Source: Lytechinus pictus (Eukaryota). From it: a DNA stretch of 64,000 bases. Positions 7,918-63,970 of the stretch are shown one piece after another (the first letter of the stretch is position 1; every line of letters starts with the position of its first letter). The notes beneath the pieces are model-generated. The model worked only from the letters and a program-made list of their open reading frames with translations. It was not told where the DNA came from and did no database searches. A program made the position numbers and the translations under genes. The stretch lies in NCBI RefSeq assembly GCF_037042905.1, contig NC_087251.1, forward strand, positions 41,418,001 through 41,482,000, in the 5' to 3' direction.

Positions 7918-7961
<44 letters not shown>

Positions 7962-12250: not shown

Positions 12251-12939
12251 AGGACAAGTCCACCCCAACCAGAAGTTGATTTGAATAAAAAGAGAAAAAT
12301 CCACGAAAATTCATTGTTATTTTCCCCGCCAATTGCAAATGATACAGATAGCAATATGATACTCCTATCCTGCATTCCAGCAAAATATTATGGTTTTCAT
12401 GTTAAACAAAAAAAAATGAAAATGTGATTTAATTCTTTCACATGTAATCACAGTTCCAAATCGGACGGTGCTGAAACACAAAATACTAAAATTTGAGATA
12501 TGAATGATGAACTTAGTTTTGCTGATTTGGCCACATTTGTTTCACATTTTAATGAGGAAAAATGAAATACTTCATATTTCATATTATCTAATGACATGGA
12601 AACGTATAGTAACTTTGTTAAACTTTCCAAACTCCGTTAGTCCGAATTAAGTTTCACTCAAAGATTTCACAGTGCATGCAGTGAGCACACGTTCGTTGGC
12701 AAATGAAACGAAGGAAAAGAAATCCGGATTTGCACAGATGCTAAAAAAGTTGTTTTTCGTAGTCAGGAACTGCGAAATCTTGACTGACGCCCGTACGAAA
12801 ATATGATATTTATACTGAATTAATCATGATAAAGTATCTCTATATGCTATTTTCATCGAATGAATGATCGGATTCATATCTGCAGTTGAAGGTGATGGTT
12901 AAGTGTTTTGCCGAGGTATTTTTCTGTACTTTTATGGAG

Positions 12940-13156
12940 TGATTTGTACAGACCGGACGAAATTGGCATCTCTGGCTCTGCGGCCGAAGACGTTACACCA
13001 CACGGGCCGCCCTGCACTGGCTGGTCCGCCCGCGCCTATCCGCAAGGCGCTGCTGAGCTTAGTCGTCGGGCGTTTTGCCAGTACTAGTAGATTGACACTG
13101 CACTGACTGACAGTGACAAGTCACGAATACGAAGATTGAAGTCAGCTAAATTTACC
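12940..13156 (+). promoter_or_regulatory. GC/CpG-rich promoter and 5' UTR region of PPP4R4
   Basis: Local GC and CpG enrichment with GC-box-like CCGCCC motifs just upstream of the ATG, against an AT-rich background. Confidence 0.6.
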
Positions 13157-13246
13157 ATGGATTGGGGTGAAAGTGGTCAAGTGGATGAGCTGGAAAGCAG
13201 CTTCAGCGATCTTGGATTGGAAAGGTCGATCACAAGTGGATTAAAG
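13157..13246 (+). CDS. PPP4R4: PPP4R4 coding exon 1 (MDWGESGQVDELESSFSDLGLERSITSGLK)
   Basis: ATG in ACCATGG context; donor AAG|GTAAGT; 90 nt, phase 0. Confidence 0.9.
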
Positions 13247-16200
13247 GTAAGTCAAATGTTTTTGACTGTTTGAATTGAGTGTTTGACTTGAGACAAGTGG
13301 TGGAGCTTTTTTTTTAAAACTTAAATTAAAAGTAGGATGGGGGGTCGGGTGTCCGGACACTTTATATTTTTGAAGCCTTCTTTTTTGTCTTTGGATTACA
13401 CTAAAATATGAATTCAATAGTTATAATCATCTTCGATTTTGTTCTCTCTAATATTTCCTAACATTTTCTACTAAAAATTTATGAAACTTTGCTTGTATTT
13501 TTTGTAAATTTTTCCAAATGACTTTCTATAATTGATCGTCCGGACACACAACCTGTACGGACACACAACAACTGGGGATATAAAACACATTTGGGAATCC
13601 TGATTTTTATGGTTGGAAAAGTAGAGTAGTCTAGCTCTTCATACATACCATTCAAATTATGGCTTTATTCCACTAAATTTTCAAACAGGATCGAGTGTGT
13701 GTGTGATGACCATAGAGATAGACATCAATAAATTTATTTAGTCTGAAAAATGAAATTTCTTTTGCCTTTGGTCTGAACTTCTGAAGCCTAAACTAGTTGA
13801 CTTATTGTTTTATAAAAAGAAATATAATTGCTTGAAAAGGACTAAAAAAGCGGCTTACCTTTAGAATCCAATGTCATGAATTGAAGTGTGATGCCTCGTT
13901 CTAACAACACTACAGTGCAGTGTGTATCCATGCTCTCATAATCGATTAGAATCTATGACATTGGATTGTAATGTAAAGGCTAAGCCGCTAAAGCTACTCA
14001 TAAAAGCTTCCGCTATCACTATTGGCATTCTCTTGCTAGCATAGTGGTCAGAGATCTTTCTCGAAGTTCCATCGACATGAGTTTGAGTCCTAACTAAGGT
14101 AAATTACGTTAAAAAAAAAAAGGTTTTGACTTTCAAGATTGAAACCAGAAGTGAGTAGGCTACACCAGAAGTCTCAATAAGTTTGGGGGGATGTGGGTAC
14201 TACATACCAAATATGGTGATGTGACCTTAATTCGCGCGTTACATAATTTTGCACACCGGCACGGTTGAACATCTTTATAAAGAGATATCACCAACAGAAA
14301 AAGCAACCCAAAATTACTCGGTATGGTAATTTTCTTGTAGGTGAGGTCTCAATTTGTGAAAATATTTGCAAAACATCGGCAAATTTTGTTACCTTTAGCA
14401 TCTGCTCTGAGAAAATCCGATCTTCTTGACAAGCATCAGTTTGCAAGCAGAGGTCTCCAAATAAGTCTGGTACATATGTATTTATGATTTTGATTAATTT
14501 TGTGTGAACTGTGATAATTTTTTTATTGAAAATCTACTTCATGAATCATGATAATTTTCAAAGTGTGTGCAAATTATGGTCACCCCATCATACATGTATG
14601 GAACTCTTCCCTAATGCGAACACTTATGGTTTTGCTGAAATATCAAAGCTAAGAAGTCTACATGTAACGGTATGTGTTCAATGTTACAATTTAAAATGTT
14701 TTGAAGAAAAAGCACAATTTTTAGGCATGACTTAAGATGTTGATTGGTTCAATTTCATTTGTATTTTCTCTGACAGACTGCTGAAGAAATAGAAAGTTTA
14801 ACTGTTGATGAACATTTGGGAGATATTGACAGAGCAGTCTTTTTACTGAGGTAAGTACTAAGAACTCATATAGGTCTAGATCTAGGCTATGTATTTAGAT
14901 GTCATTAAACAAAAATATTTTTTGAATACATTGTATGGCTTTGAGTTTTGCTTCTTATTTAAGGTATATAGTATATTTTATCATTTTGGACCAGGCTAGC
15001 TTTTAATTCAGGATTCTTGTACAGACGGACATTTAACATTTTAGTTGTTGGTAGACTGGAAATTCATCAAAATATATACATCAATGCAAGTTAGACCGAT
15101 ATTTACTAAGGACATTGTACATAGGTAACTGTCAGATTTGGTAGTATAAGGGAACATTAGCTCCCAAGGTTAGGGAGCTGTTTTTTTATATTTTTTTTTA
15201 TTTGGGGACAATTTTTCACAACTTACTGCCTAAATCTGCAAGGAGCTTCTCTAGATTCATTCTTGAAATGATAGAAGCACTGGCTGAAGTAGGCACCATG
15301 CTTTATACAGTGTAAATAAAATGAAATGAACTGCTCAGCAGATTATAGGGGGAAACAATAATTTGCTGCATTTGAAGGTACCATAGGGGTGATTCTACTG
15401 GAACACAGTTGGTGCCTTCGTGACATTACATTTTACTTGTCAATCTCGTTGGTGTCAATTTTACAAGGGTCAGACTTCTACAATCAAAGCTATAAAAGTA
15501 ATTCACTGGGAAAAGCTGTAGAATGTATATTGTGAATGCAATACATAATTTTTTTTAATGTACAGACAAAGACTAAAAAGTTTTAAGTGGAAAAATTAAT
15601 TATATAGCTACTTGGTCGCATGATCATTGTTGTATGGATATTATAGAGAATTACCGGTAGTGTTTATGATGTGCAATCAATCATTCAAATACATGTAGGT
15701 CTATGGTACAAAACTACATGTAATGTACATTACTCTCAGAATGTTGCATTATGGGTTGAACACCTGCCCAGATTTACAGTGGTTGACGAGTTGAGGTGGT
15801 GCTAACCAAGGCTACTGGCTCGTATTTTAGTAAGAGAGTAAGAGTCACATCTGGGGCCTGTCTTACAAAGACTTGCCATTGATCCAATCAATCGCAACTA
15901 TGGAAAGCCAGCAAAGTCATCATATAAAATGCATGTTTGCTCAATTTTTTTTCTAGATATGAATGTATATCCATGAATTCATTGATTTCTTGACAGTTTG
16001 GTGTGTTCTCCTTTGATTACAAAGGACATTTTGCACATTTCCTGTAGAAAAAATTATGACACTGATGGATTTCCATAGAGTTTGTAAGATGCGGCCCTGA
16101 AGTTGAATTTGAATTTAAAACTTTATTACCCCCAAAATGTACAAAGACACTTATTATTGGTGTACAGATTATAAAATGATATAGAGGGGACAACCAAGTA

Positions 16201-19200
16201 GCAAAAGGTGCTAATCAAGTGTGGCACCCTATACATATACATGTATCTCTGCAGGGTGCTACATAACTTTTTAGAAGCACTTTCCCAGTCGGGCAAGTAA
16301 ATTTTTAAATAGTTGGAATATACTTGCCCCAAAATCTTTTTCACTTGCCCGAAAAAAATCCTTGAAAAAAAAGTTTTACCTCTTCAAAAAAAGTTTTGCT
16401 GTTTTATAAACCATTGACCTTTTTCTCTCTTTTGACATGAACTGATCTACCTTGTTATTGCATTTCTTTTTCCAAAGTGATTTTATCTTGCCTGCCATGA
16501 CCAAAATTGAGGTCAATATCATACATTGTATATCGTCCCTAATTTTGGTCATTCTACTGTGAGAATTTTGCTTGCCAAATTCGGGCAAGTAGTTTTGGTC
16601 TTTACTTCAAAACACTTGCCCGACTCTAACTTCTACTTGCCCCGGGCAAGTGCTTATGTAGCACCCTGAAATAGTGGTTACATGCTTATTATCTAAAGAC
16701 CACATTCAATAAACTGACCAAATCAATGAGTGTACTGGGCACAACAAATTATAATGATTAAAAAAAAAAAACATATACATTCATGTGTACATTATAAAAA
16801 TCTTTTATTCATTTTCATTAATTTCTTGCATGGTATTCTTTGTGCATTTTCTAGAGGCTGGAGCTAGAGGGCATCAGGAATTTGTTTTCTTGGGCCAAAA
16901 AGTTGGAGATTAGCTTAAACATGCAATAATCAGGGTTGGGCTCAATTAATTTCTTCAATTACAATTACAATTATGTAAAATGAAGAAAATCAAGAAATGT
17001 TCAATTACATTTACTTTTCAATTGAATTACATTTTTTTCAATTACCTTTTAATACCAATCACCTTTGTCAATTACAATTACAATTTCAATTACCTGTACT
17101 TTTTATAAAAGTCATAAATGAATTCACTTTGTATTCTGTTTGTATAAGCACTGCCTACAGTACCAGCCACAATTCTTTGACTACATGTACCTTTTTACCT
17201 GTTTCACCAGAGAACAATAGATTCAGTGGACTGAATATATTGTTCTCTGGTGAAACAGGTAAACAGGTAGTCAATTACATTCAATTACTTTACAATAAAC
17301 TTACTTAATCTAGAATTTGATTTATTGACCTAATTCATGTCAACTGCTTCAGCATCAAAGAGTGTAATACAATGTAGAACAGAATCCAGACTCTAACATA
17401 AACCTTCATCTTATCAGATTTTCTGTAACTTAGAATTATGTTGAAATATTTCCTACATTGTATTACACTCTTGATGCTGAAGCAGTTGACATGAAATAGG
17501 TCAATAAATCAAATTCTAGATGAAGTAAGTTTATTGTAAAGTAATTAAAAGTAGTTGGCCATTTTTTTCAATTACAATTACTTTCCCTTCCAAAATTTCA
17601 AATACCGGTACAATTACAATTACTAAAAAAAATGTAATTAATTATGTAATTGATCATTTACCTTGTAATTGAGCCCAACCGTGGCAATGATATTTTTTAA
17701 ATTGATTTATTGAGCACGATTTTGTGCTCAGGTCAGGGTTGTGTTTTAAGATGGGTTGTTGATAAACTGTCTTTTTGCTGTCAATGACATTCCCTTTTGT
17801 TTTTTTTTGGTATAATATGGTACATAGTCAAAGAAAAAGGGTTTTTTAATATTACATAAAGAAAGGAAAAGCAGAGAAAGAGTGAGTAGCTTGAGATTAT
17901 GCCAAGTACAAGTTTAGAACTAAGTCCTTAGAGAAATTGATTAATTTGATTTACAGTTTTAGGTTTGATATTATCATGGGAGGGGGGGGGGGGCTAGCAA
18001 TTAATTTTTATTTTACATGTAGAAACAAGTGCCAAGATTTCTTCTTTAAATGCCACAGTCTTATTCACTTTATGAACATTTCTGAAAGATTGTACAAGAA
18101 AATTAATCTTTTTTGTGATTGGTAGTCCACATTAATCAGAGTAGACAAATGCCAATTAATAAAGAATATCATAAGTTTCCATCCAAAATCACTGAAATTA
18201 TAACAGTAAGCCTATGATTATTTGTAATCTGACTCCAATACAGTTGTACTCGTATATGATATTTTGTATTTCTTCTTGTAACTTGGAGATTTTAAAATAC
18301 TTGGCCTCATTAATTAGAAAGCCTCATCCGCATACACATGTGCATGTACATTGTATTTGGTGATCTTTTGTCTAGCTCTTCAATTCTAAATGATAAGTAT
18401 GGCATTTTATGAAGTGCTTGTAGTTTGTATTTTCACCATGTGGTAATTTTAGTATAATGATACAGTTACACTGTAATGTGAAACAATAAGGATATATATT
18501 GTGCTTAAATGTAATTCTATAATTCTAGAATTTAATAGAAAGTGACAATTGATGTTATGGGTTTAAACCATACAGTCCACATATTGGTGGAATGTCAGTT
18601 GTGCTCAAAAGTTAATAGTGAACCCCACCACAAAATGCACTATGTTATGCTTAGTGTGGAATGTAGACAGCAACACTACAATGTTCGGAGAGCCCAGAGA
18701 AACAAACATTATTGAATGTAATATTTCATCTGACTTCACAATTAAATATCTAAAACATGGTAGAACTTGAACTGATTTTCTGGTAAGGTTCACTAACTTT
18801 TTAGCACCATTGTACATGTACATGTATGTACTGTAAATGTACAGTTGCATGTAAAGATTTTTTTCTCTCTTTTTCTTTTGTCCAAGAAATGAAAGGCTGG
18901 AATATTTTGAAGGGCAGCCAGCGTACCACAAGTTCTATTCTTGTTTTAAAGAAACCAAAATAGAAAGTGATAAATCTGTGTAGTAGGTTATATGTGTTTA
19001 CTTTCTTAGTTCTTGTGCATCAACAACAAATCCATGTAAACCACCATCTTACAACATGTAATGTATACATAGTGATCATTAGCAAGGAATGGTCATGTAG
19101 TTTCAAAAGCTGAATAGTAGGGTACTCTTGAGATATGTTTGTGCTGAAAATGATAAAGCCCTTCTGTTTCTGAAAGGCTTTACACTTTGTTTTATTTTGA

Positions 19201-22200
19201 ACAATCCTGATAATCGATATTAAAGACCAATGACCCTTTAGGACCAACACCTTATGTTGAATGGTATTGATCTGTTCAACTGTCACCTCTTGTTTCAAGG
19301 GCGAGTTCTTTCAAGTGAGACAATCAATTTGCATAATCATCTCATGGTCTGTATTTGATCAAAGAGATGAAAAGAAAATGATGTCAATACACAAGCTTGG
19401 CACATTTGTTGTATTTCACATGCTACATACAAAGATTTGACTTTGTTCCAAACTGACAATATTAAAGGCAGGGACGGATCCTGGATTTTCCAAAGGGGGG
19501 GGGGGGCAAATTTTTATGAGGAAATTAAGGATATTTCATCCCAAAAAAATTTGACAAGCCAAAAAAAGGTCTTCAAGTTCAAAAGAGGGGCACACCTCTG
19601 TTTTCATGGCATTTTTACATTACAAATTTTAATTTTGCTTCTCAAAAAAGGGGGGGGGGGCATGTGCCCCCTGTGCCCCCCTGGATCCACGCCTGATTAA
19701 AGGGGACCCAAAAAAAATCACCATATGAATGTTACATTTAGTTCATATGATTTGATTATTATGATTTATGTCTATCCCTCTTCTACATGGAGTTGGTTTC
19801 TACTTTTGGTATTCCCTAAATTGCCCTAATAAGGTTCATAAGGTAGTATTTATTGTCCAGATAAATAAATAAGTGGAAATTTGCATTTTTACATGGTATT
19901 GAACATACATAACATAGCATAGAAAATGAACATATTTACAGAAAATCAAACAATCACATATAGTCACTTATGATATACACGTGCAAATGCTACCCACTGG
20001 GTAGCATTTGAAAAAATACTGTTATTGACATTAAAATTAAGATTGAAATGGAAATCTGAACTGAAAGTTAGATATCGGAAATTGAATTGAAATTACATTA
20101 GAATTGTAATAAATCAGTACTATAAATCTTCACAGCATTGTCCACTTGTAATTGTTATTGTTATCAGTATTTACATATTATTTTTATTTTCAATTTTGTT
20201 GTTTTAAGGAATTAACATCAACTACCTGACAAGGTAAATTTACATTATTAGGCATATTATTATTCTTACATAATCCCTTCCTCATTCAGCATTCGGATTG
20301 AGCTTGGCACGAATGAGTTTAAGAACCTATTTGTTCGACAACGTGCTGACCGTAGTCTATTACCAGATCTCATCCTTTCGTAGTTTACATTCAATGGGTG
20401 ATCATTATTGTATAGTATTTCTTTTGCCTTTTCAAGTATTCTGTTTCGACATACATCAGTGAGGTTTAGGTCGTGTCCAGTTATTTTTTTCTGCTTGTCT
20501 GACCATTCTACTTAGTATATTCAGATCTTTTTTGCGACAGCTTGTGAACCAAACCACACAATCAAATATGAGGATGCTTTCAATAAGTGATCTATAGAAT
20601 AAAACCATTATGGTGCGGTCAACATGGAATGACTTCAATTTTCTTATGAAATACATCCTTTGTATTGCCTTCTTGTAAATTGAATTGCATTGTTCTCCCC
20701 ATTTTAATCCATCGTCAATAATGGTACCTAAGTATTTGAACTTATGAACTATTTCAATTTCCTCTTCATTGATTCTAACACGACAATCACTTGGTTCTAC
20801 TTGTTTATTATTTCTAAAGTCAAATATCATTTCTCTGGTTTTTGTTGCATTGAGATCTAAGAAATTGTCATTACACCAGTCGGTAAACCATTTTACACAG
20901 TTTAGATACTCAAGTTCACATTCCTTAATTAGACCAACTATAACTGTGTCATCTGCGTATTTGAGAATAGAGACATTTTGAGAAAGGTAACGACAGTCAT
21001 TGGTATATAGAACAAATAGGATTGCAGAGAGCACACAGCCCTGGGGTGAACCTGTATTCGTTACTATGGGATCGCTCAAAGCATCTTGGACGCGCACGCG
21101 CTGGATTCTATTCCGAAGAAAGTCAGTTAGCCATAAAATTAGGGACGGTTTCACATCCAGACATTTCAGCTTCTCGACAAGTCGATGGGGTTGAATAGTG
21201 TTAAATGCGGACGAAAAGTCAACAAACAAAGTGCGAGCGTACGATTTCTTTTCATCTGTGTGCTTGCAGAGAATATGTGTCAAATAAAGAATCGCATCTT
21301 GAACGGACTTCTTTGGCTGATAGGCGTACTGATGGGGGTCAACCAGGTGCTTTATGGGTTGGAGAATATACTTCAGTATAATTCGTTCTAGGCACTTCAT
21401 CGCTATTGAAGTCAATGCTACTGGACGATAGTCGTTATGTTCAGAGGGGCGGGGCTTTTTTGCTACCGGGATAACAATGGAAGACTTCCAGCAAAGGGGT
21501 ATCACTTGTTTATCTAACGACATTTGGAACAAAACGCAAAACGGCAATGCCAGTTCTCTCGAGCAATTACGTAGTACCTTTCCGGTAATTAGATCGGGCC
21601 CGGATGCCTTCCTTGGATTGATTCTATTGAATTGGACTAATACATCTCTTTCTTTAATCTTAACAGTATCATCTCGAGAGTCAGTTAATTCAGCTATCTG
21701 TCCGTCTATTATATCACTGAAGTTATGGGTATCAAACCGTCCGTAGAACCTATTAAGTTCATTTGCAATCTTAAAAGGGTCATCAACATTCGCGAGTGAT
21801 TGATCTCTTTTGGGAACATAGTCGGTCATTGATTGCAAACACTGCCACGCTGCTCGCGGATTATTATTTTGAAAGTGATTTTCGAGCTTTCTTCGGTAGT
21901 CTCGTTTCGCTCTGTTTATTTCCTGACGCAGTCTAGCGTGAAACGACTTTACGGTTAGTCGATCACCGGCATCGAATGCTTCCTTTCTTGCTTTGATGAT
22001 TCCTTTAATATCTTTAGTAATCCAGGGTTTACTATTTGGGTACACCTTAATCGTTTTACTTTGTATATGTAAATCCTGACAAAAGACGATGTAGTCATTA
22101 ACTGCACTTGTAATTTCGTTTATGTCGTCCGAAGCTTCAAAGAACACATTCCAATCAGTTATTTGAAAGCACGTTTTGAGGTTGTCAATTGTTTCATTAT

Positions 22201-52200: not shown

Positions 52201-55200
52201 TTCAACTTTGAAACAAAAAGTACTTTTTAGAGGGAAAAATACAAATTTCAGCCAAAAAGGTAAAAAAGGGTGTTTTTTACACACAGACGTCTTTACATAT
52301 AACAAGACATAAGAACAACATTGTCAGTCCAGGTATGGATCTTCATTCTTGTCACAGTCTTTTACATGATGGATGCATAAGAAATGTGTGGACGCGAAAT
52401 TATCGCATTAAGTTCGGACTGGGGTAAGTTGAGCCATGGTAATTCTTATGGTAATGTAAATAAAAAAACAATCAAACCTTAAAAAGCCATCGATATGCAG
52501 GCAGAAAAGAGCAAATTCACATGGCAGTTCTTTACTTTTAGAGAATGTTAGTATTTATAGAGAATTAGCAAGTGAAAAGACTTTAAATAAAAAATTGACA
52601 TGCTGGTTCTACCCGCATACATGTGGCTCAACTTACCCTAGAAGGTGGCACAACTTACCCCACAGATGGGGCAAGTTGTGCAACTTGACATCGTTTTTTT
52701 CAAAGGTCACAACGACTTTCAGGGTGGGGGTAGAACGTTGTATATAGGTGAAAAAGATTTCCCAATAATCATATTTAAAGGCAAGGTACTTATTTCTACA
52801 ATATTATTAGTCATATCAATTCTATCATGCAAAATGCAAAAAGTGTCACAACTTACCCCGCCTTCCCCTATAGAGCAAGGCTTTTAAGGGCTTGGTATAT
52901 CTGTTTCTTTAAGGGGCAATCACACATCATCGGTTTAGATGGTGGTTCTTTGCAGTTTGCCTGAAAAGTTTGATGCAATCAGACCCCCTTTACAACAGAG
53001 TTTGCCCATTTTGGTTTCAATAGGTTACGACACGGTGTGTATTGCTTTGTTAAGCAAGCATAATTGAAAGAAATGTGAAATGTTGTAACCAACTCAAAGC
53101 AAATTGGCCTTATGGGCTCTAAATCTAATTGCATTCAGTTTTCAGGGACAAACTGTAATGAACCCGCATCTAAAGGAGTGAAGTGCGATTGCCTATTCAC
53201 AGTGACTTGATAAATAATGCTGACTACCAAACAACCTTTATAACAAAAGACCAACATACTATACAAGTCCTCTACACCATTCAACCATTATTAAAGGACA
53301 AGTCCACCTGAACAAAAAGTTGATTTGAATAAAACGAGAAAAATCCAACAAGCATAACACTGAAAATGTCATCAAAATCTGATGTAAAATAAGAAAGTTA
53401 TGACATTCTAAAGTTTTGCTTAATTTCACAAAACAGTTATATGCACATCCTGTTCGTTATGCAAATGAGGGCAGGGGGTGATGACATTCACTCACTATTA
53501 TGTATTTTATTGTATGAAATATGACATATTCAAATTTTCTCCCCGTTGTCCTATGAAACAAATGTTTATTCCTCCCTGAACATGTGGTACTACCATTATT
53601 TTAACATTATATGGTTCAGTCAAGTTGGGCCTTATAGTCAAATCTGTAAAAATTAGAATATTGTATAATTCAAACAATAAAAATAAAAGAAATAGTGAGT
53701 GAGGGACATCATCCACTCTCTCATTTGCATGTCACTGAGTTGTTCATATTAAACTGTTTTGTGAAAAATAAGCGAAACTTTAAATTGTTGTAACTTTCTT
53801 ATTTTACATCCGACTTTGATGAAATTTTCAGTGTTATGCGCGTGTGATTTTTCTCTATTGATTAAAATCAACATTTTTCTGGGGTGGACTTGACCTTTAA
53901 ATACGTGGTATATTGCTGGATGATTGTTCTTGGAGCTATGTAGGTTAGGTTCAATAATGGGGATGTACTTCATGAAACAAGATGACGTTCATGGATGATT
54001 TTGCCCTGAACCAATCAGATGCAATGATTTCAGTAGCTTATAACAAGTTGCCTGAGAAAATCACAGACTATTTTGTCCGTGAAATGCTTCCCAGGGTATT
54101 TGACACCACAAGGTCACTCGTGTAATCTTTCAAGGTTAGGTGGTTATGATACACTTGGGTGATTCTTAGTATGGTACAGTTTTTGATCTGTAATGCAACT
54201 TGTGTCACATAAAAATATGTAGCACAAATGCTTGAACTGTGATGTCACAAAGGGAGAGAAGTTAGATACCCTCTGTACTTTGCCTTATTGCATCTCTCTA
54301 AAATCTAAAATCACTTCATAATGTGATATGAAGGTAGCTGTGAGAATTTGCATGCAACCAGGAAAATGGCTTGTCAAAAGAGTTGTGCTATAAATTCCAC
54401 TCGAAAATAAATATACTTTTGATGACCCTGGAGCCTTGAATCTGGTTGTTTGGTGATATTAAAGAGTATGATTTTATTTTGTTAAACATAAAGTTGTATC
54501 TCTGAGCTTGAATTTTACCCAATTTATCTATAACTCGCGTCAAATATTGTAATTAAGACTCGAACTAAACTTACGGATGTAAGATTTTATTTTAACAAAT
54601 TGAAGTTTGTGATATAAAAAATGATAATAATAATAATATACTGATCATTCTTAGGTTGAGGAGTTAATTTGCTATTAATGTGTACATGAACTTGTAGTTC
54701 AGACTATGATATGTTTTAAATCATATGATTTTACTTTTCATTTGAAAGAATGTTATTTTGAAGATGTTAGTTTATATTTTATATGACTTGCCCATCATTT
54801 ATGCAGTAATATGTTGTTTTTTCGATAAAAAGTAGATAATTACTCTGATGGACTCTATATTCTATAATCATCTCATTTATTAATTTTATTTACTGCTAGA
54901 GTTTTAAGTTACAGTATGCTGCATTTCAGCTACAGTTGTAAACATAAAGGTGATTAGGGCTGCATTTATGCTACGTCAAGTGCGAATCACAAACATGAAT
55001 CATAATTTAAAAACACCAACCTTAATCATGGTAACTGCAGAATCAGTTTTAATAGTTTATCCTCTCTCCAACACTGTTTCTCACTTCAGGCCTAGCCAAT
55101 GCACCTCATAGTTTGACCCATAAATTATATGTCAAATTCAATGCAGGTTTCAATATTGCAAAAGATACACAACATTGATTGCCAATACATGTGTGTGGCT

Positions 55201-57267
55201 ACTGTGTGAAGTGAAAGCGAAGAATACTTTTACGTTATTATTTGCATGACATCATTTTTTCCAGCAGTTTGAATAGAGTATGTTTTATTTGACATTTTGC
55301 GAAAGTGTTTTTGCAGAAACTTTTTTTCCAAACACCCCTTCCTTGTTTCATGTTTGTGTTTTGAAACATGTTTACTTTTACTTTTGACTAAAATGCAACT
55401 GTAATGATTTTAGGGTAAAAAAAGTGATGCATAAATGGACCTATACAGCCAAGAAATATTGTTAATCAAAATCTTTTTGATAATTTTGAAAGGATATGTT
55501 TTGATAGATCCATCCTAATATAGATAGATCCCTCTGTAAAAAACTCGGTTAGAGCATCTTATAGAAAAAAAGGGTATAGGAAATAGGATACTGACAGAGA
55601 AGGGGAAGAGAAGAGAAACAGCGATGAAAACATATCAAATGCTTGAATGAAATCATTGGACTGATAGGTGATGATCAAAAATAGGTGAAAAGTCTTGTTC
55701 ACTAATGTCAGGAACGGATGAGTAACCTTGTATAGAAGCAGTGGTGGTATAAGGTTAAATACATTGATAGATCGATGTTATACAAGAGCCTGGCGATACT
55801 GGTTTTATTTCTGACTTAAGAACAACCCATTCTTTTGCCTTTTTTTCTATGATCTCCTTCCTCTATGTCATATATTTTTTAGGGTGATTTAACATTTAAC
55901 AACTTAACAAATCACCATACACATATTATAATCTGTGTTATCTGTATTCTGCTGTTAACATGTATCATGTCCCCAAAAAAGCATACTTCAGTGTTCACTT
56001 TGGACATTTGCTTGACACACTGTTTATGAGAGTTTGAAAGAAGGAAAAGGGGAAAAAAGTGTAAGTCATTTTAATGATGGAGGGGGGGGGGGGGGGAGGT
56101 GTTCATATTATTAGCATTATTCCTGATTTGATTTTTTTATCACTAAATGACACTGTATAATTGTAGTTGGTCCTACACTGAAGGGGAGGGGAGCATTGGA
56201 AAAAAAAAATTGAGACTGGGGCTATTTTTGATGTTTCTGATTATTCTAAATGATCCTTTAAAATTGGACCCAATAGTAATTTACAGAAACCATTTTGGAT
56301 ATTTTGGGGCTAAAGTGCCCTCGGCCCCCATGTATTTCCTCCCTGCTTGGGAGTAGTATGAAATATGTGATGAAGAATAAAAACAAGCGTTGTTTTCAAT
56401 TCACAGAATTCACCAATGCTGTCCATGTATAGAGAGGAACACCGGTTGACAGAATGCAGGCAATACTCTGCGTATAACTTCCCTGTAAGTATGATGAGTA
56501 TGATATTAATCATATACTAGTACACCGCCTTTTGTATCTGTTTATTGGTGTAGATTCTTTGATATGATGCTACATCCAATCAGAATCAAGGATTTCATGT
56601 AAATTACCATAATTGTATACAACAGGGTCTTGTGATGCACTGAGTGCTCTTTTGATATATTTGACAAAAATGTAATTTCCTAATTGCCGTTCCTACTGTG
56701 TCCTGGTAGAAAATGTTGAGTAATTGAGGTTGTTTTTGTTGACTTTGTATATATTATTGCTGAATTTCTTAGTTCAAGATGTGGTTCTTTGGGTATGTTG
56801 TTACCTTCAAGATCTCTATATACCAGATCAGATCATATGTATGTCTTCATAATAATTATATTGATAATTTAATGCTAAAAATGATAATTAGATTGGCTAC
56901 TATAATGCATAGATCCATCTTTTCTTGTTCACGGCACTTCAAGAAAGTCCAAGTGCACATGAACAAATGACAGAATAGAACTAGATATTTTCCTGAACAT
57001 GATATAATCATTGAGCGAAGAACAAATAAGTTAACATTTATTAAGTTGGTATCTGAATTCTACTGTTGATGAAATGTTGATATTACTACTTGTTTTGATT
57101 TACATCTCTCTGATCCTTTAATAGTGTATGGTGCTATTTGCTGGTGCACGTAAGTTTAAAGCTGAACTTCATGGAACCTTTGCCAGTCTCTGTGATGATC
57201 CTCACCCTCAAGTCAGGGCTACTCTAGCCTGTGGTTTTCATGAAGTAAGTAATATGAATCAATATGA

Positions 57268-57352
<85 letters not shown>

Positions 57353-60300
57353 GGCCTACTGTGTGTCTAAGAAAACAAGGAAACCCAATAACAGAGATGA
57401 CTATCACAGGCATTGAATATGCTTTGATGGAAAATTTTTACCCTAATAGAGAGATGTGAGACCAAGTACTTAGTGAATCGTTCACACATGACAGATTACA
57501 TGCGTTAAACACTGAGGCATGTCAAAATAATTTGCACAGAAACACAATTCAATCTACTCTCATTCCGACATTAGTGACAGAAACTTACAATGTATACAAG
57601 GAAAATGCTAGCATCCCTTTTTTATGCCATGTCATTGAATTTACCTAACAAATCTTTCCCTAACTTTTTGTGCAACTTGGTTTTGACAAAATTTTAAACT
57701 GGCTGTGCTCATCAATGTGGGAGTCTTTCATATTGTATTTGGAATCAAAATAAAGAAGAAAAAAATCATAAATTTATGACGAAAATTTGAAAAAACATGA
57801 ATCACTTGCAAACGTGTGGAGCGCTGTGGCCCAGTGGATCAGTCTCCGAACTTTGAAACAGAGGGTCGTGGGTTCAAATCCCAGCCATGGCGTAATTTCC
57901 TTCGGCAAGAAATTTATCCACATTGTGCTGCACTCAACCCAGGTGAGGCGAATGGGTACCTAGCAGGAATTTATTCCTTGAAATGCGTGTGCGCTGTAAT
58001 CTTAGTAATTACGGCAGCCAAGCTACAGCTGGGGTAATAATATCCAAGTCCTTTGGAAGCGCATAGAGACATTATTCATAATTGTGATATGCGCTATACA
58101 AGAACTGTTTATTATTATTATTATTATTAAACGTTAGAAAAAATAAGCGGCAATTCTGGTTTCTCTTTTTTCTGGGAAGCACTGTATATCATCAGGGAAT
58201 AATTTTCTTGGTATCATGTTGCAGTTTGCTGTGCATTCTTGTTATGATTGCTACACAAAGTTTCTTTTATGTAAACAGCAGGTTTTGACATGGGACTGTA
58301 CACAATTTTGAATTTTTGTTCTCAATTCACCCAAACTGTTAATTAAATTTTGACAATCATAAATTTTCCTGGATATCATACATCCACGTATTAACCTTCA
58401 CACATTAGATCTAAATCAGCAATCAATCACATCTGTGGATGTTGCTTTTTATTAAAAGAATAGAAGCAAAGAGTTGGTTTGTATACTGGTATTGTCTTTG
58501 CTTCTTGTTTATGTTGCTTTATTATTATTTTGTAATGTAATTTGCAACTTGGAAGTCATTGAAACATATATCAACAAAAACTATGGTTTAACTTCTTTTT
58601 TATTCATGAATGTAAAAAAAAAGGCCTCCTGTATTGATGTATGTCAGTGAAGCTCAGTTAATCATTCTTTCTTATTGTAAATATACAAAAAAAAGGACGA
58701 GACCGGTATTTTTCTTTCAGGTTCGTCACTAATGCATCTTTCAATGGAGTATACTGTAATAGAAGATTTCTTCATATTCAATCCTGAAAAAGAAATTTAT
58801 TTTTGGTGTGTTTTATTTACAGGTTGCTCATCTCTTAGGAAACAATGTATCTTGTATTCATGGAGAGCTGGTTAGTCTACTCAAAGATGAAAATCTACAG
58901 GTATAGTAGTAGTATTATCAATCATGGGGGGGGGGGGGGGCATTGATGTACTTAATTCAAATTTGATGATAAAATCTACATCTTCACATCTATTCTAGGG
59001 AGAGAAAAGAGCAGTTGCACAGTTAAATATGTTTTAAGTTGCTTTATAACATTGTTACGATTTTCCCAGTTTTATTTATGAAATATTTTGCTGTTTTTTT
59101 TATTTCTTTTTATAGGTATTCTAATTTGTTTTTGCTTATGCAAATCTTCTTGCACAAGTCGTATTGTTTATATGTTGCTTTTAGAATATATGACACATCT
59201 TTTTTAAGTAACATGGATAAGCTTCTCCTTTAGCAATAAATGTATATTGGAGTATATTATTGAAGCCAAAACTCAGGGGCTCAGTTTTAAGGCGAGCGAG
59301 AGCGATTGCTTGCCTAAACGTAAACGATCGCTTAACAAGAGTGTCAGTCAATGATCAAACTGTTAGAACCAACCTTGAAAACTTCTCAATCAAGGTTTTA
59401 GAAATAACACACAATTACATTTTAGCAATAACACACATTGCAAGAATGACATTAAAAAGTTCATTAAGATCAATATTGCATATATCTGATTGTTTGTATC
59501 TTTTGGTTGTGGGTTCCTCCATTCATTTTGTGATTGGACAAAAGAACTCCCCTTGTATGTCCAAAAAGATCTTTTCGTAGTGCTCCTCTACCACTCTCCT
59601 TAAACGTTTTAGTAGACCTTTTTATTGCTCCCCTCATAATTATAAAACTGAGTCTCTGGACTTTAAAACTCTTCATATAAGTGTTCCCATGTATAAGATG
59701 AATATAATTTGTCTTACAAAGTGATCTACCGTGAACCCTCTACATTGATTAATTCTATGCCTTTGAAACCTTCAAAAGTTATTTCATAATTTGCTGTTTT
59801 CAGGTTTTACAGGGTATTACATCTCACCTCCCTGAGACTTTGGTAACATTCTCTAAAGGAGCACTAAGCAGTAGTGGTCATCATCTCGATAATAAGGTAA
59901 GAGAAAGACTTCCTTTTCATTGCAATGTTAGTAATTGTAATAAGAAATGATGTTGTTAAAGCTTTACACAGCCTTAGAAACTCCCCCACTCATATTATAA
60001 TGTTAAGATGATTTATATTGCTCTGCAGTGGGCCTATATAAATCTTTACTATTGTAAACTAAATTAATCTCCAATATATTTTTTTATCAAACCTTAAAAA
60101 AATACTATTCAAGTAGTATTTCATGAAAGATGTATGTTATGATAATTGTAGATAAATTTTGTATGACAATGCATTTAATTTTTTTTCTCTATATGAACTA
60201 AAACTGCATGTATATTGTCAGAGTGTTTTGTTAAATTTTGAAAGCAGGTCACAAAATAACAGCAAATGATTACCGGTAATGTGCATTATATCTCCCCATC

Positions 60301-63300
60301 CTATCCTCTCTTTATATGAGGTTATGTAGTCTAGGGTGCTGTTACATAAAGCTTTGCAATTGATCATATGACTTATTTCTACAATTGATTGCATTTATTA
60401 ATCCCCATGATCAATCATAAAAACCAGCCCATTATCAATTACTTAGCTTTAAAGTTACAGGGCCTTGTTATTTATGTATAAGGATGTTAAATGGAGGCCC
60501 CGTGTAGAGGAGAGTCACCACCTTTGCACGTTAAGAACCCACTGCACTATTCGTATAAGAGTAGGGGGAACCCCCAGTGTAGTGGTCCACCTGCACCCCC
60601 CCCCCAATCAGTTATATCGGGAGGAGAGACCTGTGAGTCATAGTGATTCAGTTCGCTTTTTGCCTCCCAGGCAAAGGTGACACCAAAACAAATAATAATA
60701 CAGATGTGTTTGGAATATTGAGCATTCCTATTCCTATGTGACTATCCTGCTACTTTTCTCACCTTCTTTTAGATGGTAACGATAGGTCTCTTTTCCTATC
60801 GCAGGGTAAGATATATGGTTATACAATACATGTATGTAGTGATTAGCATGGTAGATGTAGTATGCATTTTAATAGAACAAGCAGCATTCCATACTCCTGC
60901 TTCATTTTCTATTGCAAACCGGGAATGGTATGTCTTGAGGTGTTTTATTTCCCAGTGTAATAAGTGTACATGGGATATGCTGAAAGCAGTTGCATTATAA
61001 TGAATGTAGACAGGGCTGCACGTTTTATTTACAGGCTAAGAATCATATGAGAGGGAAGCAGCTATGAAGCAGGAAATTTAAAGAGAGAGATAGAAAAGTT
61101 GGTTATCTTTGTATGAATTCAACTTGAGAGCACTGTAACTTTTGGCTGCCATTAATTGGGGCTTCCAAAGAAGGAGAAAAATCAATTCCAATCGAGATAC
61201 AGATTTGATGCTACACCAGTCCATAAATTATCCTTTGTTAGACATAACTGAAGTCCTCGGGTAGAAACTCGGGTAGAAAAACCAGCACCCAAACTAAATC
61301 GTTCTGTACTCCAATCAAAGAGAAAGAAAGGAAAAAAACTCTTCATGCAATTGTTTGAGGGTATCTGTCTCAAGCAGTACCATTTCACCTTGTTGGTGCG
61401 TAATTTGTGAGATCATCACATCTGAGATGTAATTTTTATTGGATAATTTGCATCCACATTGATGCCTCATTTCTTCATGAGCAGTAATGGACTAATGGTG
61501 TTTTGCAGGCTACATATCATGCATACATGTTGCAGCTGTCATTGACGTTTATCTGAGCAGGTCCATTTTCTTCCTTTCATAGTATAGCCTGTTAAGTTTG
61601 GTGAAGATCCCCTAAAAGTGATTGTCTTTTTTCATTTCATTATTGTCTTGTTTTAAGGTTTATACCCAAAAATTGATATTTTTAATTAAAAAAAACCATG
61701 ATGATGTGACATTAAAAAAAACATGCTTTAGTGGTTGTATTTTACTTCTTACTGGAACATTTATTTTGATTGGTTGCCTGATCAATATCTGCATATTTTT
61801 TTTGTTGATATTAAACCATTTCTTAAGTTTGTAATTTGCTGAGAATTTTGAGATATGATCCGTGTTTAGAATGGTGAGATTGTTCAAATCTGTGTAAGAT
61901 GTAATCGTGATAGTGATAATCATTTCAACATTTCTTTAATTAGTTTTGACCCATTTATTAGATTCATATCATCCTCATCTGCAACTCTTGCAGTTCGATA
62001 TAACACAGGCAATGTATACCACAACTTATTTTTCAAATATGTTATTTCCTTTAATCTTCATGTCATCAAAATACTATTTTAGTATAGATTATATTTAGGA
62101 GGTTTTGGTAAAGATTAGTGACTTTTATAATCTTGAAACTGAAACATTTACAGACCTTAAGAAAACTAAGATTTAAATTGTTTTGATGATGATTATATTC
62201 AACATATTGAAAGATGCAATTATTTAACTGTATGAAATATGAATATTGCAAGTATTTGTATGCCTCGATTAACCCAGTGATAATGTTAATTTCATAATGA
62301 GATTATCTGCAGTGTCTTTTGAAACATTTCTTTTATGTGTGTATAAGTAATTGTGAAATTGTAAAATATTCATATTCAGTTTATTTTCATTTCAGTTGCC
62401 CCTCTTTTGAATGTGATATTTCAGTCTTGCCTCAGCTTTGTTATTGAACTGCAGACCTATTGACCCAAATTCACAAAAGTTTTGGATCTGTAGTTTTGAA
62501 ACAATTTAATGCATTTATTACTCTTAAAGCACATATTTGAGGGAGCGTCCAACGCTTTTATCACAGTGAGCTAAGTACATGTAAATGCAGTAGAGAGTAT
62601 CCTTGGTGACAGGGTGATTTTAATGCAAAAGCGTTCATTCATTGACTCATTATTAGACGCTCCCTCAATATTCTTGCATAAACCATGATTTTAAACCACA
62701 AATTCCAAACCATCTCTGTGAGTTTTGCCTATTGTGATAGAAAAATGCTGGATTAGTAGAGTATTTGCAACAGCAACATGAAAATGTACTAGTAATTTAA
62801 TGATAAATTATTAGCAATTTGTTGATGCCTATTACAAAAAATTATGATTTGAAATTCAAAGTGAATTTACCAAATTTTACATGGTAGATATATGGATATT
62901 TAAGTTATTGCCTGCTGCATTTTGATTCGTGTTATTTTCTTGATGCTACCAGGTATATGGTGTTGGTGATTTGATACCAGCCATCTTGGCTGCAGAGAGT
63001 AGAGCATCTAACTCAAGGAATTGGAGACTCCATGTTGATATTCTAGAGAAACTCGCCTGTCTTCCTAAGTGCTTAACCAGTGATCAGATCCATTCCAAGT
63101 TTATTCCTCTTTTCTTCAAGCATGTCACTTCTCATGTGAGTTTCTAAATAGAAGAACGAAAACAAGCTTCAAATTATTATAAGAAGTGGTTTAATTGAGG
63201 TTAAAATTGTATTTATGAGGATTTTCATATCAGTCATGTCCTCAAGAATGTTGAAAGTTTGCTCTTTTTTTAAATTCATATAAAGTGTATTTTGGTTGTC

Positions 63301-63970
63301 TTTATTGACTGATTTATCTTTTTTTTTTGGGGGGGGGCATGGTAGTGAAATATTGAAGTAAGTATGTTGTGTTGTTATTGCAGGTCATTCTTTTACTCTT
63401 TCAATTGTTTGTTTAAAATTGGCTCACCATAAGTTCAGTCCTTTTTATTGCAAGTAGCAACTTTACAGATTTGATTAGTATGAATTACACTTCATAAGTA
63501 TATCCTTCCCACCTGCACAAAATTCACAAATATGAAACATGATTATAAAAATCATTTTATACATTTGACATTAAACCCAGATTGATATCAGGCACAACAG
63601 TTCCTGTTTGTTTTTGTTTTTTACTTCCTTAGATTTGATTTATTGATTTCCGTTTTACAATTGTACATAATATGATAAACATAACATAACAAGGTCAAAA
63701 ATACTACAAGACATAATATAATATATATATATAACATAATCATAGATTTAAGGAAGACTTGCATGAATATTGGGACGATATCTTTTCATTGAATATTAGT
63801 CTATTTATTTTTTCGATTATATGAAAATAATGAATCTTGAATGTGTGCTTTGTTTTGATTTCAGAGAGCTTTGCCAATTCAGCATGCAGCAGCTAGGACG
63901 TTGTGTGTTCTAATGAGAAACTGTAGGAAGTTAGATCATAGACAAGACATGGTAGCTAAACTCATCCATG
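13157..63970 (+). CDS. PPP4R4: PPP4R4 ortholog (serine/threonine-protein phosphatase 4 regulatory subunit 4), multi-exon, 3'-incomplete in this window
   Basis: 16 exons joined by GT-AG introns give one open frame of 568 codons. Motifs recalled from vertebrate PPP4R4 appear in order: LKTAEEIESLTVDE, SGQEVQRLSV, KGQLAQSVQSRLASC, IKKEILPLVTSLCQDVDYEVRACMCKQL, AYNFP, DLIPAILAAE, ALPIQHAAARTLC. Confidence 0.95.
14777..14850 (+). CDS. PPP4R4: PPP4R4 exon 2 (TAEEIESLTVDEHLGDIDRAVFLLS)
   Basis: ttttctctgacag acceptor, GTAAGT donor, 74 nt, ends in phase 2. Confidence 0.93.
15851..16099. mobile_element. MITE (related copy at about 25120-25376)
   Basis: GGGCCTGTCTTACAAA...TTTGTAAGATGCGGCCC termini; internal similarity to the 25.1-25.4 kb copy in inverse orientation. 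Confidence 0.7.
16252..16668 (-). mobile_element. hAT-like MITE
   Basis: CAGGGTGCTACATAA...TTATGTAGCACCCTG; close inverted copy at 36461-36872; repeated CTTGCCC/GGGCAAG motifs. Confidence 0.85.
16931..17683. mobile_element. hAT-like MITE with CAATTA repeats containing two internal hairpins
   Basis: CAGGGTTGGGCTCAATTA...TAATTGAGCCCAACCGTG; 8-bp TSD gcaataat/gcaatgat. Confidence 0.8.
19469..19695. mobile_element. Poly-G hAT-like MITE
   Basis: CAGGGACGGATCC...GGATCCACGCCTG; perfect 8-bp TSD ATTAAAGG. Confidence 0.85.
19761..19830 (+). repeat. 70-bp target-site duplication, left copy
   Basis: atgatttatgtc...ttgccctaat identical to 23309-23378. Confidence 0.92.
19831..23308 (-). mobile_element. 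Apparently full-length Rex1/Babar-type non-LTR retrotransposon (about 3.48 kb) in PPP4R4 intron 2
   Basis: Single APE-RT ORF, about 108-nt 5' leader, 3' end with GGACAATAAA and short ACCTT repeats, bounded by an exact 70-bp direct repeat. Confidence 0.92.
20456..23200 (-). CDS. LINE polyprotein: APE endonuclease, reverse transcriptase and C-terminal DUF1891-like region; frameshifted near the C-terminus (reading continues to a stop at 20266)
   Basis: NVRSL, FTETWL, GGG, LRPFYLPREF, GDFN and SDH endonuclease motifs; DFSSAFNT, GSPQG and KYADD RT motifs; KAIQRMYFIRKL...FYRSLIESIL segment typical of Rex1/Babar. Confidence 0.93.
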   Translation of the reverse strand: MFVKSISCIWVCFVLLFVIVLPQNSHVYASPGQTTTIKYSREYLYYLADYTTSKSSPLNLPEWTPTREDDNGIPQQKRRGKRGGIRNRIRKRGNRPPLPAITLSNVRSLYNKLDEIQALTSYINDFRNSSIICFTETWLNPDINDDCIRIDGFNVARLDRSFQQTKKRRGGGICLYVNDRWCTNFTIKNSICNENLEMLCVSLRPFYLPREFPQVHLFLVYIAPDANQNEAEQLIQNKVREMEAESRDSPKIVLGDFNHCRLEAMLPNYCQVIDKPTREGNILDRCYCSVKDSYKTVIRPGIGLSDHNVIHLLPKYRQKLKTQKVQKRVVQVWNNETIDNLKTCFQITDWNVFFEASDDINEITSAVNDYIVFCQDLHIQSKTIKVYPNSKPWITKDIKGIIKARKEAFDAGDRLTVKSFHARLRQEINRAKRDYRRKLENHFQNNNPRAAWQCLQSMTDYVPKRDQSLANVDDPFKIANELNRFYGRFDTHNFSDIIDGQIAELTDSRDDTVKIKERDVLVQFNRINPRKASGPDLITGKVLRNCSRELALPFCVLFQMSLDKQVIPLCWKSSIVIPVAKKPRPSEHNDYRPVALTSIAMKCLERIILKYILQPIKHLVDPHQYAYQPKKSVQDAILYLTHILCKHTDEKKSYARTLFVDFSSAFNTIQPHRLVEKLKCLDVKPSLILWLTDFLRNRIQRVRVQDALSDPIVTNTGSPQGCVLSAILFVLYTNDCRYLSQNVSILKYADDTVIVGLIKECELEYLNCVKWFTDWCNDNFLDLNATKTREMIFDFRNNKQVEPSDCRVRINEEEIEIVHKFKYLGTIIDDGLKWGEQCNSIYKKAIQRMYFIRKLKSFHVDRTIMVLFYRSLIESILIFDCVVWFTSCRKKDLNILSRMVRQAEKNNWTRPKPH
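23309..23378 (+). repeat. 70-bp target-site duplication, right copy
   Basis: Identical to 19761-19830. Confidence 0.92.
24515..24702. mobile_element. Palindromic MITE
   Basis: GTTTCATAAAGCTGTTCGTAAGTTAAGAGCGAC arm inverted at the right end; sister copy at about 27997-28186. Confidence 0.8.
25766..25868 (+). CDS. PPP4R4: PPP4R4 exon 3 (SGQEVQRLSVIQNLPNLLKNNNVDAMRRVVPKVR)
   Basis: ttacag acceptor, GTAAGT donor, 103 nt. Confidence 0.93.
26643..26790 (+). CDS. PPP4R4: PPP4R4 exon 4 (DVLHLASQDLQEAAAAAF...QNADNRDP)
   Basis: cctttgtag acceptor, GTCAGT donor, 148 nt. Confidence 0.92.
27627..27700 (+). CDS. PPP4R4: PPP4R4 exon 5 (DISDSWLEVLLNVITHLPKDVLKKD)
   Basis: tttgtag acceptor, GTAAGA donor, 74 nt. 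Confidence 0.92.
27997..28186. mobile_element. Palindromic MITE, same family as 24515-24702
   Basis: Same inverted arms. Confidence 0.78.
28520..28755 (+). mobile_element. tRNA-derived SINE (second family) within a degenerate Kolobok-like relic
   Basis: GCTCAGTTGGTAGAGC A box and GAGTTCAAACC B box; flanks at about 28290-28950 resemble the 30052-30651 element. Confidence 0.65.
30052..30651 (+). mobile_element. Kolobok-like non-autonomous DNA transposon
   Basis: TTAAGGACAAGTCCACCCCA...TGGGGTGGACTTGACCT|TTAA; sister copies at 53295-53896 and a 5' fragment at about 12252-12303. Confidence 0.87.
30751..30857 (+). CDS. PPP4R4: PPP4R4 exon 6 (ILPVALSKGQLAQSVQSRLASCRLLGKIATRFDTFM)
   Basis: ctctctgtag acceptor, GTGAGT donor, 107 nt. 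Confidence 0.94.
30891..31365. mobile_element. Harbinger-like MITE just downstream of exon 6
   Basis: GGTGGTTTTAGACCGCCTCGA...TCGAGGCGGTTTGAAACCACC TIRs; CpG-rich interior. Confidence 0.75.
32139..32601. mobile_element. Harbinger-like MITE
   Basis: GAGGCTGTTCTCACT...AGTGAGAACAGCCTC TIRs; internal AAACTAGTTT palindromes. Confidence 0.8.
36461..36872 (+). mobile_element. hAT-like MITE, same family as 16252-16668
   Basis: Same TIRs and internal sequence; explains the near-identical spurious ORFs at 16376 and 36549. Confidence 0.85.
37851..37958 (+). CDS. PPP4R4: PPP4R4 exon 7 (IKKEILPLVTSLCQDVDYEVRACMCKQLDSVARGLG)
   Basis: tcttccag acceptor, GG|GTAAGT donor, 108 nt; its 3' half is the first unit of the tandem array. 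Confidence 0.95.
37900..39181 (+). repeat. Minisatellite, 16 copies of an 82-bp unit derived from exon 7 and its 5' splice site
   Basis: Unit starts at 37900, 37979, 38066, then every 82 bp from 38148 to 38968, then 39043 and 39116. Confidence 0.97.
39659..39780 (+). CDS. PPP4R4: PPP4R4 exon 8 (LEPTRSAILPELVELGKDEESCVRLAALETIVSLLSLLDD)
   Basis: Pyrimidine tract plus AAG acceptor, GTGAGT donor, 122 nt. Confidence 0.92.
42138..44287 (+). mobile_element. Non-autonomous Helentron/DINE-1-like rolling-circle element (HINE)
   Basis: 17-bp subterminal inverted repeat at 42141-42157 and 44244-44260, adjacent 5' inverted copy at 42162-42176, 3' hairpin AATTCGTC-cgcat-GACGAATT, CTAG end in T-rich flanks. 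Confidence 0.7.
44288..44432. repeat. Compound (TTTA)n/(TTCA)n/(TTCG)n microsatellite
   Basis: Directly visible, abutting the 3' end of the HINE-like element. Confidence 0.9.
48683..48805 (+). CDS. PPP4R4: PPP4R4 exon 9 (DTCTQTIIPLVRKFCENAM...GRLCHGLS)
   Basis: cattttag acceptor, GTGAGA donor, 123 nt. Confidence 0.93.
48841..49435 (+). mobile_element. Kolobok-like non-autonomous DNA transposon, 35 nt into intron 9
   Basis: TTAA|AGGGGAATCCA...TGGATTCCCCT|TTAA. Confidence 0.87.
49440..49898. mobile_element. MITE abutting the Kolobok-like element
   Basis: GGGGGTTTCTAACTGAGCAG...CTGCTCAGTGAGATACCCCC imperfect TIRs; repeated TTGCAA motifs. Confidence 0.65.
50120..50217 (+). CDS. PPP4R4: PPP4R4 exon 10 (VNLTEELKLWFMKYYYKLCSLGLNEKSISNDRL)
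   Basis: tgtag acceptor, GTGAGT donor, 98 nt; resembles the vertebrate FYKKLCTLGL segment. Confidence 0.9.
51514..51549 (+). CDS. Candidate 36-nt cassette micro-exon of PPP4R4 (EQSGASSNSSTK)
   Basis: ttttgcttag acceptor, AAG|GTGACT donor, phase 0-0, no stop; no homology support. Confidence 0.45.
52067..52868. mobile_element. TA-flanked Tc1/mariner-superfamily-like non-autonomous element
   Basis: TA|GGGGAAGGCGGGGTAAGTTG...CAACTTACCCCGCCTTCCCC|TA; repeated GGGGYAAGTTG binding-site-like motifs. Confidence 0.82.
53295..53896 (+). mobile_element. Kolobok-like non-autonomous DNA transposon
   Basis: TTAA|AGGACAAGTCCACC...GGTGGACTTGACCT|TTAA. Confidence 0.87.
56407..56484 (+). CDS. PPP4R4: PPP4R4 exon 11 (NSPMLSMYREEHRLTECRQYSAYNFP)
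   Basis: ttcacag acceptor, GTAAGT donor, 78 nt; AYNFP motif. Confidence 0.9.
57125..57244 (+). CDS. PPP4R4: PPP4R4 exon 12 (CMVLFAGARKFKAELHGTFASLCDDPHPQVRATLACGFHE)
   Basis: tag acceptor, GTAAGT donor, 120 nt. Confidence 0.93.
57268..57352. repeat. (TA)n microsatellite
   Basis: About 40 TA units starting roughly 24 nt after the exon 12 donor. Confidence 0.95.
57816..58128 (+). mobile_element. Full-length tRNA-derived SINE
   Basis: A box TGGCCCAGTGG, B box GGTTCAAATCC, CAACCCAGGTG...ATGGGTACC core, (ATT)n tail, AAACGT duplicated on both flanks. Confidence 0.9.
58823..58900 (+). CDS. PPP4R4: PPP4R4 exon 13 (VAHLLGNNVSCIHGELVSLLKDENLQ)
   Basis: tttacag acceptor, CAG|GTATAG donor, 78 nt. Confidence 0.92.
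59804..59896 (+). CDS. PPP4R4: PPP4R4 exon 14 (VLQGITSHLPETLVTFSKGALSSSGHHLDNK)
   Basis: ttttcag acceptor, GTAAGA donor, 93 nt. Confidence 0.92.
60480..60700 (+). mobile_element. 3' fragment of a Deu-domain-like SINE
   Basis: GTTAAATGGAGGCCCC...TTAAGAACCCACTGCACTATTCGTATAAGAGTAGGGG resembles the DeuSINE central domain as recalled; AAT-rich tail. Confidence 0.55.
60773..60805 (+). CDS. Candidate 33-nt cassette micro-exon of PPP4R4 (MVTIGLFSYRR)
   Basis: Long pyrimidine tract (tacttttctcaccttcttttag), AGG|GTAAGA donor, phase 0-0, no stop. Confidence 0.5.
62953..63135 (+). CDS. PPP4R4: PPP4R4 exon 15 (VYGVGDLIPAILAAESRAS...FFKHVTSH)
   Basis: ccag acceptor, GTGAGT donor, 183 nt. Confidence 0.93.
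63865..63970 (+). CDS. PPP4R4: PPP4R4 exon 16 (RALPIQHAAARTLCVLMRNCRKLDHRQDMVAKLIH)
   Basis: tttcag acceptor, GTAAGT donor, 106 nt. Confidence 0.93.

Follow-up and report, generated by a model that had tools for sequence, protein, structure and literature searches.

Palindromic TA-flanked octamers in a Lytechinus pictus PPP4R4-like gene region as probable excision scars of TA-targeting transposons

We identified a strong excess of three palindromic octamers of the form TA-N4-TA in a 64,000-nt stretch of Lytechinus pictus DNA (hereafter the window). These octamers are probably germline excision scars of TA-targeting cut-and-paste elements of the Tc1/mariner type, in which both two-base overhangs were kept. 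A duplicated TA around a few extra bases is the form of a Tc1/mariner footprint, and the octamers match this form. Exact counting gave 27 copies of TACATGTA, seven of TAGGCCTA and six of TACCGGTA. The copies of TACATGTA, all intronic, start at 14591, 14659, 15690, 15715, 16238, 17182, 18014, 18813, 18819, 23457, 23950, 25464, 27303, 29918, 30975, 31003, 31716, 32101, 34502, 36198, 37792, 40470, 41768, 45864, 51266, 60827 and 62576 (span 14591..62583). TAGGCCTA, with about 0.3 copies expected, starts at 1933, 11964, 26049, 29967, 33389, 45376 and 57351 (span 1933..57358), and TACCGGTA at 4697, 15652, 17603, 41979, 47841 and 60271 (span 4697..60278). An earlier sequence-only reading had listed TACATGTA by eye and estimated about seven and about six copies of the other two; all 27 of its coordinates were verified, the window holds no further copies, and both estimates equal the exact counts. 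Its remark that TACATGTA is missing from 1-13.1 kb was likewise correct, the first copy being that at 14591.

The excess is robust to the choice of background. With an order-3 Markov background built without the motifs, TACATGTA, TAGGCCTA and TACCGGTA rank first, second and third among the 136 strand-merged TA-N4-TA classes, with 27, 6 and 6 copies observed against 3.1, 0.19 and 0.22 expected; these masked counts take six of the seven TAGGCCTA copies, masking of a TA run having clipped the one at 57351. Keeping the motifs in the order-3 background, with simple repeats masked, gives expectations of 4.0, 0.28 and 0.28, and that for TACATGTA is 3-4 at orders 2-3. With the motifs included, the three octamers also head the list of all 256 palindromic octamers at each order from 2 to 4. 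At order 5, where the background consists largely of the motifs themselves, TACATGTA still ranks first (27 vs 11.4, P=6e-5), and TAGGCCTA and TACCGGTA leave the top eight. The sequence-only reading had pointed to a loss of enrichment under higher-order models, by way of CpG decay or microsatellites, as the result that would count against it; the ranks at orders 2-4 and the P value at order 5 show no such loss, and neither process explains the excess. Both outer letters are needed for it: T and A flank 27 of 56 ACATGT, 6 of 14 AGGCCT and 6 of 9 ACCGGT, in contrast to 4 of 88 AATATT. In total, the excess octamers make up about 0.3% of the window length.

Related motifs were also counted in the window. 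The +4 forms TACATA/TATGTA are not enriched (77 observed vs 71 expected), and the +5 class is not significantly so (18 vs 12.8). TACCGTA/TACGGTA occurs six times with two expected (P=0.016), which fails multiple-testing correction. TACTAGTA, at 13082, 56515 and 62787, occurs three times against 0.6 expected (P=0.027); it could represent a fourth scar class, from CT..AG ends, although its significance does not survive correction. T is rare adjoining TACATGTA (7 vs 17.3, P=0.023, one of 18 tests of target-site preference).

The sequence-only reading had expected the octamers to be 6-bp insertions at TA, not substitutions. Site-by-site comparison bore this out at 11964 and 31003 and, with five extra bases, at 38013, but not at 4697 or 36198. 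Of the 40 six-base sites, six were compared: two show a clean 6-bp difference, one is a substitution, one is shared or not a scar, and two are ambiguous. Both clean cases are unpolarised. At 11964 (TAGGCCTA), the two arms of a palindromic MITE upstream of the PPP4R4-like gene (11173..11997), within which a TTAA-flanked element is nested, differ by an additional GGCCTA, present at a TA in the right arm and missing from the left; around this site the arms match over 25 bases inside, 13 outside and, past the nested element, another 17. The site at 31003 (TACATGTA) lies in a high-copy inverted-repeat element (30890..31388), which also bears the copy at 30975. Exactly six letters are missing here in paralogous contigs of all four runs (4, 4, 6 and 1 contigs), and the gap represents only 22%, 7%, 20% and 52% of the depth, respectively. 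At 30975, the paralogous copies have gaps of mixed length (30974-30980). Low depth over 30974-31003 was excluded as evidence because family copies may simply end there.

The five-base case, TACAGTA at 38013..38019, occurs in one of the 16 units of a tandem array; the other 15, the real exon included, have only TA. Since the real exon is without the five letters, 38013 is a polarised 5-bp insertion. By comparison, TACCGGTA at 4697 lies inside a SINE-like repeat and aligns gap-free to other SINE-like copies, as expected of a substitution, and is therefore probably not a scar. At 36198 (TACATGTA), a contig from organism A (about 7% substitution divergence) is without only five letters over 400, so there is no 6-bp gap in organism A; the site is either an old scar common to both or no scar at all. 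Arm-to-arm alignment at 17603 (TACCGGTA) was uninformative. Empty twin sites within the window were found for one of the 40 six-base motifs and one of 19 TAC(A/T)GTA, two TACATA matches in TA microsatellites being ignored. High-copy repeats dominate the contig comparison over 29500-37850 (10 six-base motifs), in which two of the 10 motifs were touched among the 12 indel rows listed of 226; the outcome at 36198 was drawn from gap totals and adds one motif to these two.

All copies of TACATGTA fall in a PPP4R4-like gene (PP4 regulatory subunit 4, HEAT repeats), which occupies 13158..63970 on the forward strand and continues past the window end. A tblastn exon map places 17 coding exons with approximate edges, covering about residues 1-580, and none of the three octamers was found within them. 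Named Lytechinus PPP4R4-like proteins match the exon at 26643-26789 with full identity, and the Pfam HEAT domain was matched on homolog P0005. This homolog also contains a 12-codon exon, at 51514-51551 of the window, that P0004 and P0007 do not match and that is probably alternative. The introns contain many MITEs, one young non-LTR retrotransposon and one exon-derived tandem array. The array (37901-39190; 16 units, mostly 82 bp) reproduces the final 20 codons of one PPP4R4 exon and the splice donor of that exon, and yields a row of look-alike splice donors. Within 1-13 kb, no Pfam match was found among 13 scanned of 80 frames of at least 55 aa, and the AT skew flips sign near 10-12 kb. Three nested inverted-repeat elements (10992-12255) lie directly upstream of the CpG-rich promoter region.

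The octamers are unevenly distributed along this gene. The sequence-only reading had described a gene body strewn with motifs; TACATGTA instead forms a patch over the 5' half, where 21 of the 27 copies fall within 13158..37900. Its density is 1.26/kb in 13158-20299 and 0.82/kb in 23301-37900, about 1/kb over the patch, and falls to 0.24/kb in 39200-64000 (distal vs proximal gene, P=0.0007). The further claim of a bias to the transcribed region holds in part and for TACATGTA alone: none of its 27 copies lies upstream of the start codon, against 20% of TA sites (P=0.002), and the same is true of the 24 copies in non-repeat DNA (P=0.005). Against this, the evidence softens to P=0.026 when a TACATGTA-free gap of such length is allowed anywhere without a preset boundary, and the upstream region does not differ significantly from the distal half of the gene (P=0.09). 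The minor classes show no gene-body bias, with 3 of 13 copies upstream (TAGGCCTA 2/7, TACCGGTA 1/6), and the upstream absence is therefore restricted to TACATGTA. The bias of this octamer takes the form of a patch covering roughly the initial 25 kb of the PPP4R4-like gene. The available portions of two papers report that some Tc1/mariner vectors favour introns (PMC2874221, PMC3878927), which makes a targeting effect behind the patch plausible, a single window being insufficient to show it; any cause for the patchy density is one that we infer.

Candidate source elements were sought by testing every TA pair in the window for inverted ends, which listed 31 candidates. The TA-flanked GG..CC element that the sequence-only reading had placed at 52067 is real: it is non-coding, reads TA/GGGG...CCCC/TA, spans 52065..52870 with 20 of 20 terminal bases complementary, and is a candidate source of TAGGCCTA. 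For TACCGGTA, the candidate is a TA-flanked 78-bp hairpin with CC..GG ends (17188..17269), whose left TA doubles as the right TA of the TACATGTA copy at 17182. A third TA-flanked palindromic element (3801..3963; 18/20) starts with CC and has a degenerate right end. These resident GG..CC and CC..GG elements supply candidates for the prediction made for the two minor classes. For the CA class, the commonest, the window holds no intact resident element, only an orphan right end, ...CACTG/TA, at 58180 (58130..58186), possibly from a CAGTG-ended element; no partner end was found in the window. We take this orphan to resemble Tc1-like ends. No DD(D/E) transposase frame was found in the window. About 36 excess octamers thus stand against three intact TA-flanked elements.

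The window carries several other repeats. TTAA-flanked palindromic MITEs beginning AAGG, presumably Kolobok-like, lie at 30048-30655, 53291-53900, 48836-49440, 11186-11775 and 9296-9858, and depth over the 30048 family rises to as much as tens of thousands of times the single-copy level. The high-copy element at 30890-31388 and a second MITE at 36457-36875 are missing from the orthologous sites of organism A, whose contigs skip them, so these MITEs are either younger than the split or polymorphic. A 2.1-kb inverted-repeat element with CGCG-rich stretches (42141-44260) gave no Pfam match among the frames scanned, and two tRNA-type SINE copies with (TTA)n tails (7977-8269 and 57838-58130) are 97% identical. 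Searches for further copies of these repeats gave 3 and 0 matches, seed-only, in viral contigs, one match without similarity in metagenomes, and none in prokaryote genomes.

The observations made directly, namely the octamer excess, its TA-specific form, the length differences at three sites and the resident GG and CC termini, are consistent with the following model. An element would enter at a TA and duplicate it; the transposase would later excise the element, and each flank would keep its two terminal bases as a 3' overhang. Both non-complementary overhangs would then be retained and filled during end joining, giving TA-XY-X'Y'-TA, a net gain of six bases. In this way, CA..TG ends would give TACATGTA, GG..CC ends TAGGCCTA and CC..GG ends TACCGGTA, and the nearly neutral scars would fix by drift and accumulate over a long time. 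No pair of element-present and scar sites was seen, so the excision origin of the octamers is one that we infer, as is the fill-in repair route.

The scars appear to build up with time, as indicated by three observations that are each weak alone. As the sequence-only reading had stated, the young non-LTR retrotransposon (19831..23308, reverse strand; a 920-aa frame with endonuclease and reverse transcriptase) is free of TACATGTA, with an exact count of 0 where the local rate would give 3.3 (P=0.035). Recognisable repeats hold fewer TACATGTA (3/27, P=0.064), and one-mismatch neighbours of the three octamers are mildly in excess (70 vs 56, 16 vs 8 and 13 vs 9). Stacked forms are present at 18813, 29918 and 60827. 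The retrotransposon itself lies between two identical 70-bp direct copies (19761-19830, 23309-23378), a length unusual for a target-site duplication, which would be shorter.

The odd part is the uniform +6 across three end types, and one other transposon-based account would explain it without special repair. The scars could stem from elements whose first four bases are palindromic (CATG, GGCC, CCGG), cut with a 4-base stagger so that the overhangs anneal and are cleanly ligated. A Minos-like geometry is a 4-base stagger that gives a +6 scar, and this account also fits the missing +4 and +5 excess. We nevertheless consider it unlikely, given that the 31 candidates, a small sample from one window, include no convincing TA-flanked inverted-repeat pair starting with CATG, GGCC or CCGG; the resident ends are GGGG, CCT and CAGTG, and TAGGGGTA/TACCCCTA is absent from the window. 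More improbable still, and already largely refuted here, is an origin in transposon-independent mutation, whether through CpG decay, at junctions of TACA/TGTA microsatellites or by template switching that forms palindromes. The gene body is indeed CpG-poor (CpG o/e 0.45 vs 0.69 upstream), TATG-type runs occur at three sites, and the TACATGTA expectation climbs to 11 at order 5. Yet decay of TACGCGTA should yield TATGCATA as often as TACATGTA, and the counts are 0 and 27; TACGCGTA itself is found 0 times and its single-step intermediates TACGTGTA/TACACGTA once. CpG decay is also unable to produce TAGGCCTA or the CpG-bearing TACCGGTA, the empty arm at 11964 has no TAGG for a template switch to copy, and the other 253 palindromic octamers sum to 354 against ~315 expected, only about 12% over.

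Selected protein-binding sites within introns would suit the clustering of TACATGTA in 5' introns, a frequent location of regulatory sites, and the copy at 36198 may be common to the window and a related taxon. TACATGTA presumably resembles an Iroquois-type homeodomain motif, and it is reportedly a promoter motif in Phytophthora. Selection on binding sites would leave unexplained, though, why three different cores share one TA-N4-TA frame and why length differences occur inside MITEs and a tandem array, and we give it very little weight. Sequencing or assembly error is the least credible source of the octamers: that the palindromic cores are 4-cutter sites is all that speaks for it, and two run X8 contigs, possibly from the same individual, show no difference from the window across 31338-32160 and 32576-34585, spanning four motifs, which argues against an assembly artefact.

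Returning to excision with both overhangs kept, we also considered a broader reading, which is speculative and rather doubtful: that breaks left by a number of unrelated TA-targeting families are all mended in the urchin germline in one fixed way, with both two-base tips kept, or that both strands are cut two bases inside the ends, and that octamer density is a fossil map. If both strands were cut inside the ends, elements would be removed without reinsertion. The ratio of scars to intact elements, about 10:1, is the reason that the density would serve as such a map, a readable and family-resolved record of transposase access to germline chromatin, in this case along the initial 25 kb of an expressed gene. 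The traces of excision are normally mixed, and a single genome does not allow them to be counted. A uniform scar with a family-naming core would make past cut-and-paste traffic countable and mappable from one assembly, would test whether elements quit introns far more often than they remain, and would reveal a germline end-joining route unlike that of the worm. As a caution, a hit to TACATGTA in a motif search of such a genome need not mark a binding site.

Several known systems resemble the scars described here. A +6 footprint class exists for Tc1/Tc3. The Minos footprint is likewise a net +6 at TA; it consists of four bases of one end and is not palindromic, unlike the octamers, which would hold two bases from each end. 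On the proposed model, the octamers would share with C. elegans Tc1 the TA target, CA..TG ends, non-complementary 2-nt 3' overhangs (PMC4490562) and element tips between two TA, and the available portions of two further papers describe NHEJ scars as overhang bases between duplicated TA (PMC3878927, PMC2874221). In the accessible text on worm Tc1, however, 78% of events leave TACATA/TATGTA (+4), with varied POLQ-dependent germline repair (10.1101/2022.08.01.502254), whereas here +6 dominates, fixed scars reach ~0.6 per kb, and the +4 predominance is absent (77 vs 71). Given this usual +4 scar, and that neither +4 nor +5 is enriched here, the sequence-only reading was too strong in calling it established that Tc1/Tc3 leaves TA-CA-TG-TA. 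The insertion at 38013 has exactly the canonical Sleeping Beauty form, TACAGTA/TACTGTA; the +5 class is not significantly enriched here, and the eight footprints in the available part of the Sleeping Beauty paper include no +6 form and no TACATG (10.1101/659086). The scar sequence does not appear in the accessible text of PMC12632400, and a literature search, thin on subscription papers, the classic Tc1/Tc3 footprint papers included, returned no genome-wide excess of these octamers in animals. Fixed scars are also known from rice, where the accessible text reports 94 natural excisions of DNA transposons in a comparison of the Asian and African rice genomes, heterogeneous in form, with Mariner insertions exceeding excisions ~2.6-2.8 to 1 (PMC4423477). 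Unlike these, the scars here are uniform, with ~36 excess octamers to three intact elements, which is not the same measure as the rice ratio. The type of mechanism is already known; to it, the window contributes a signature of three classes, one direct TAGGCCTA case, resident ends that match, and a trimmed gene-body claim.
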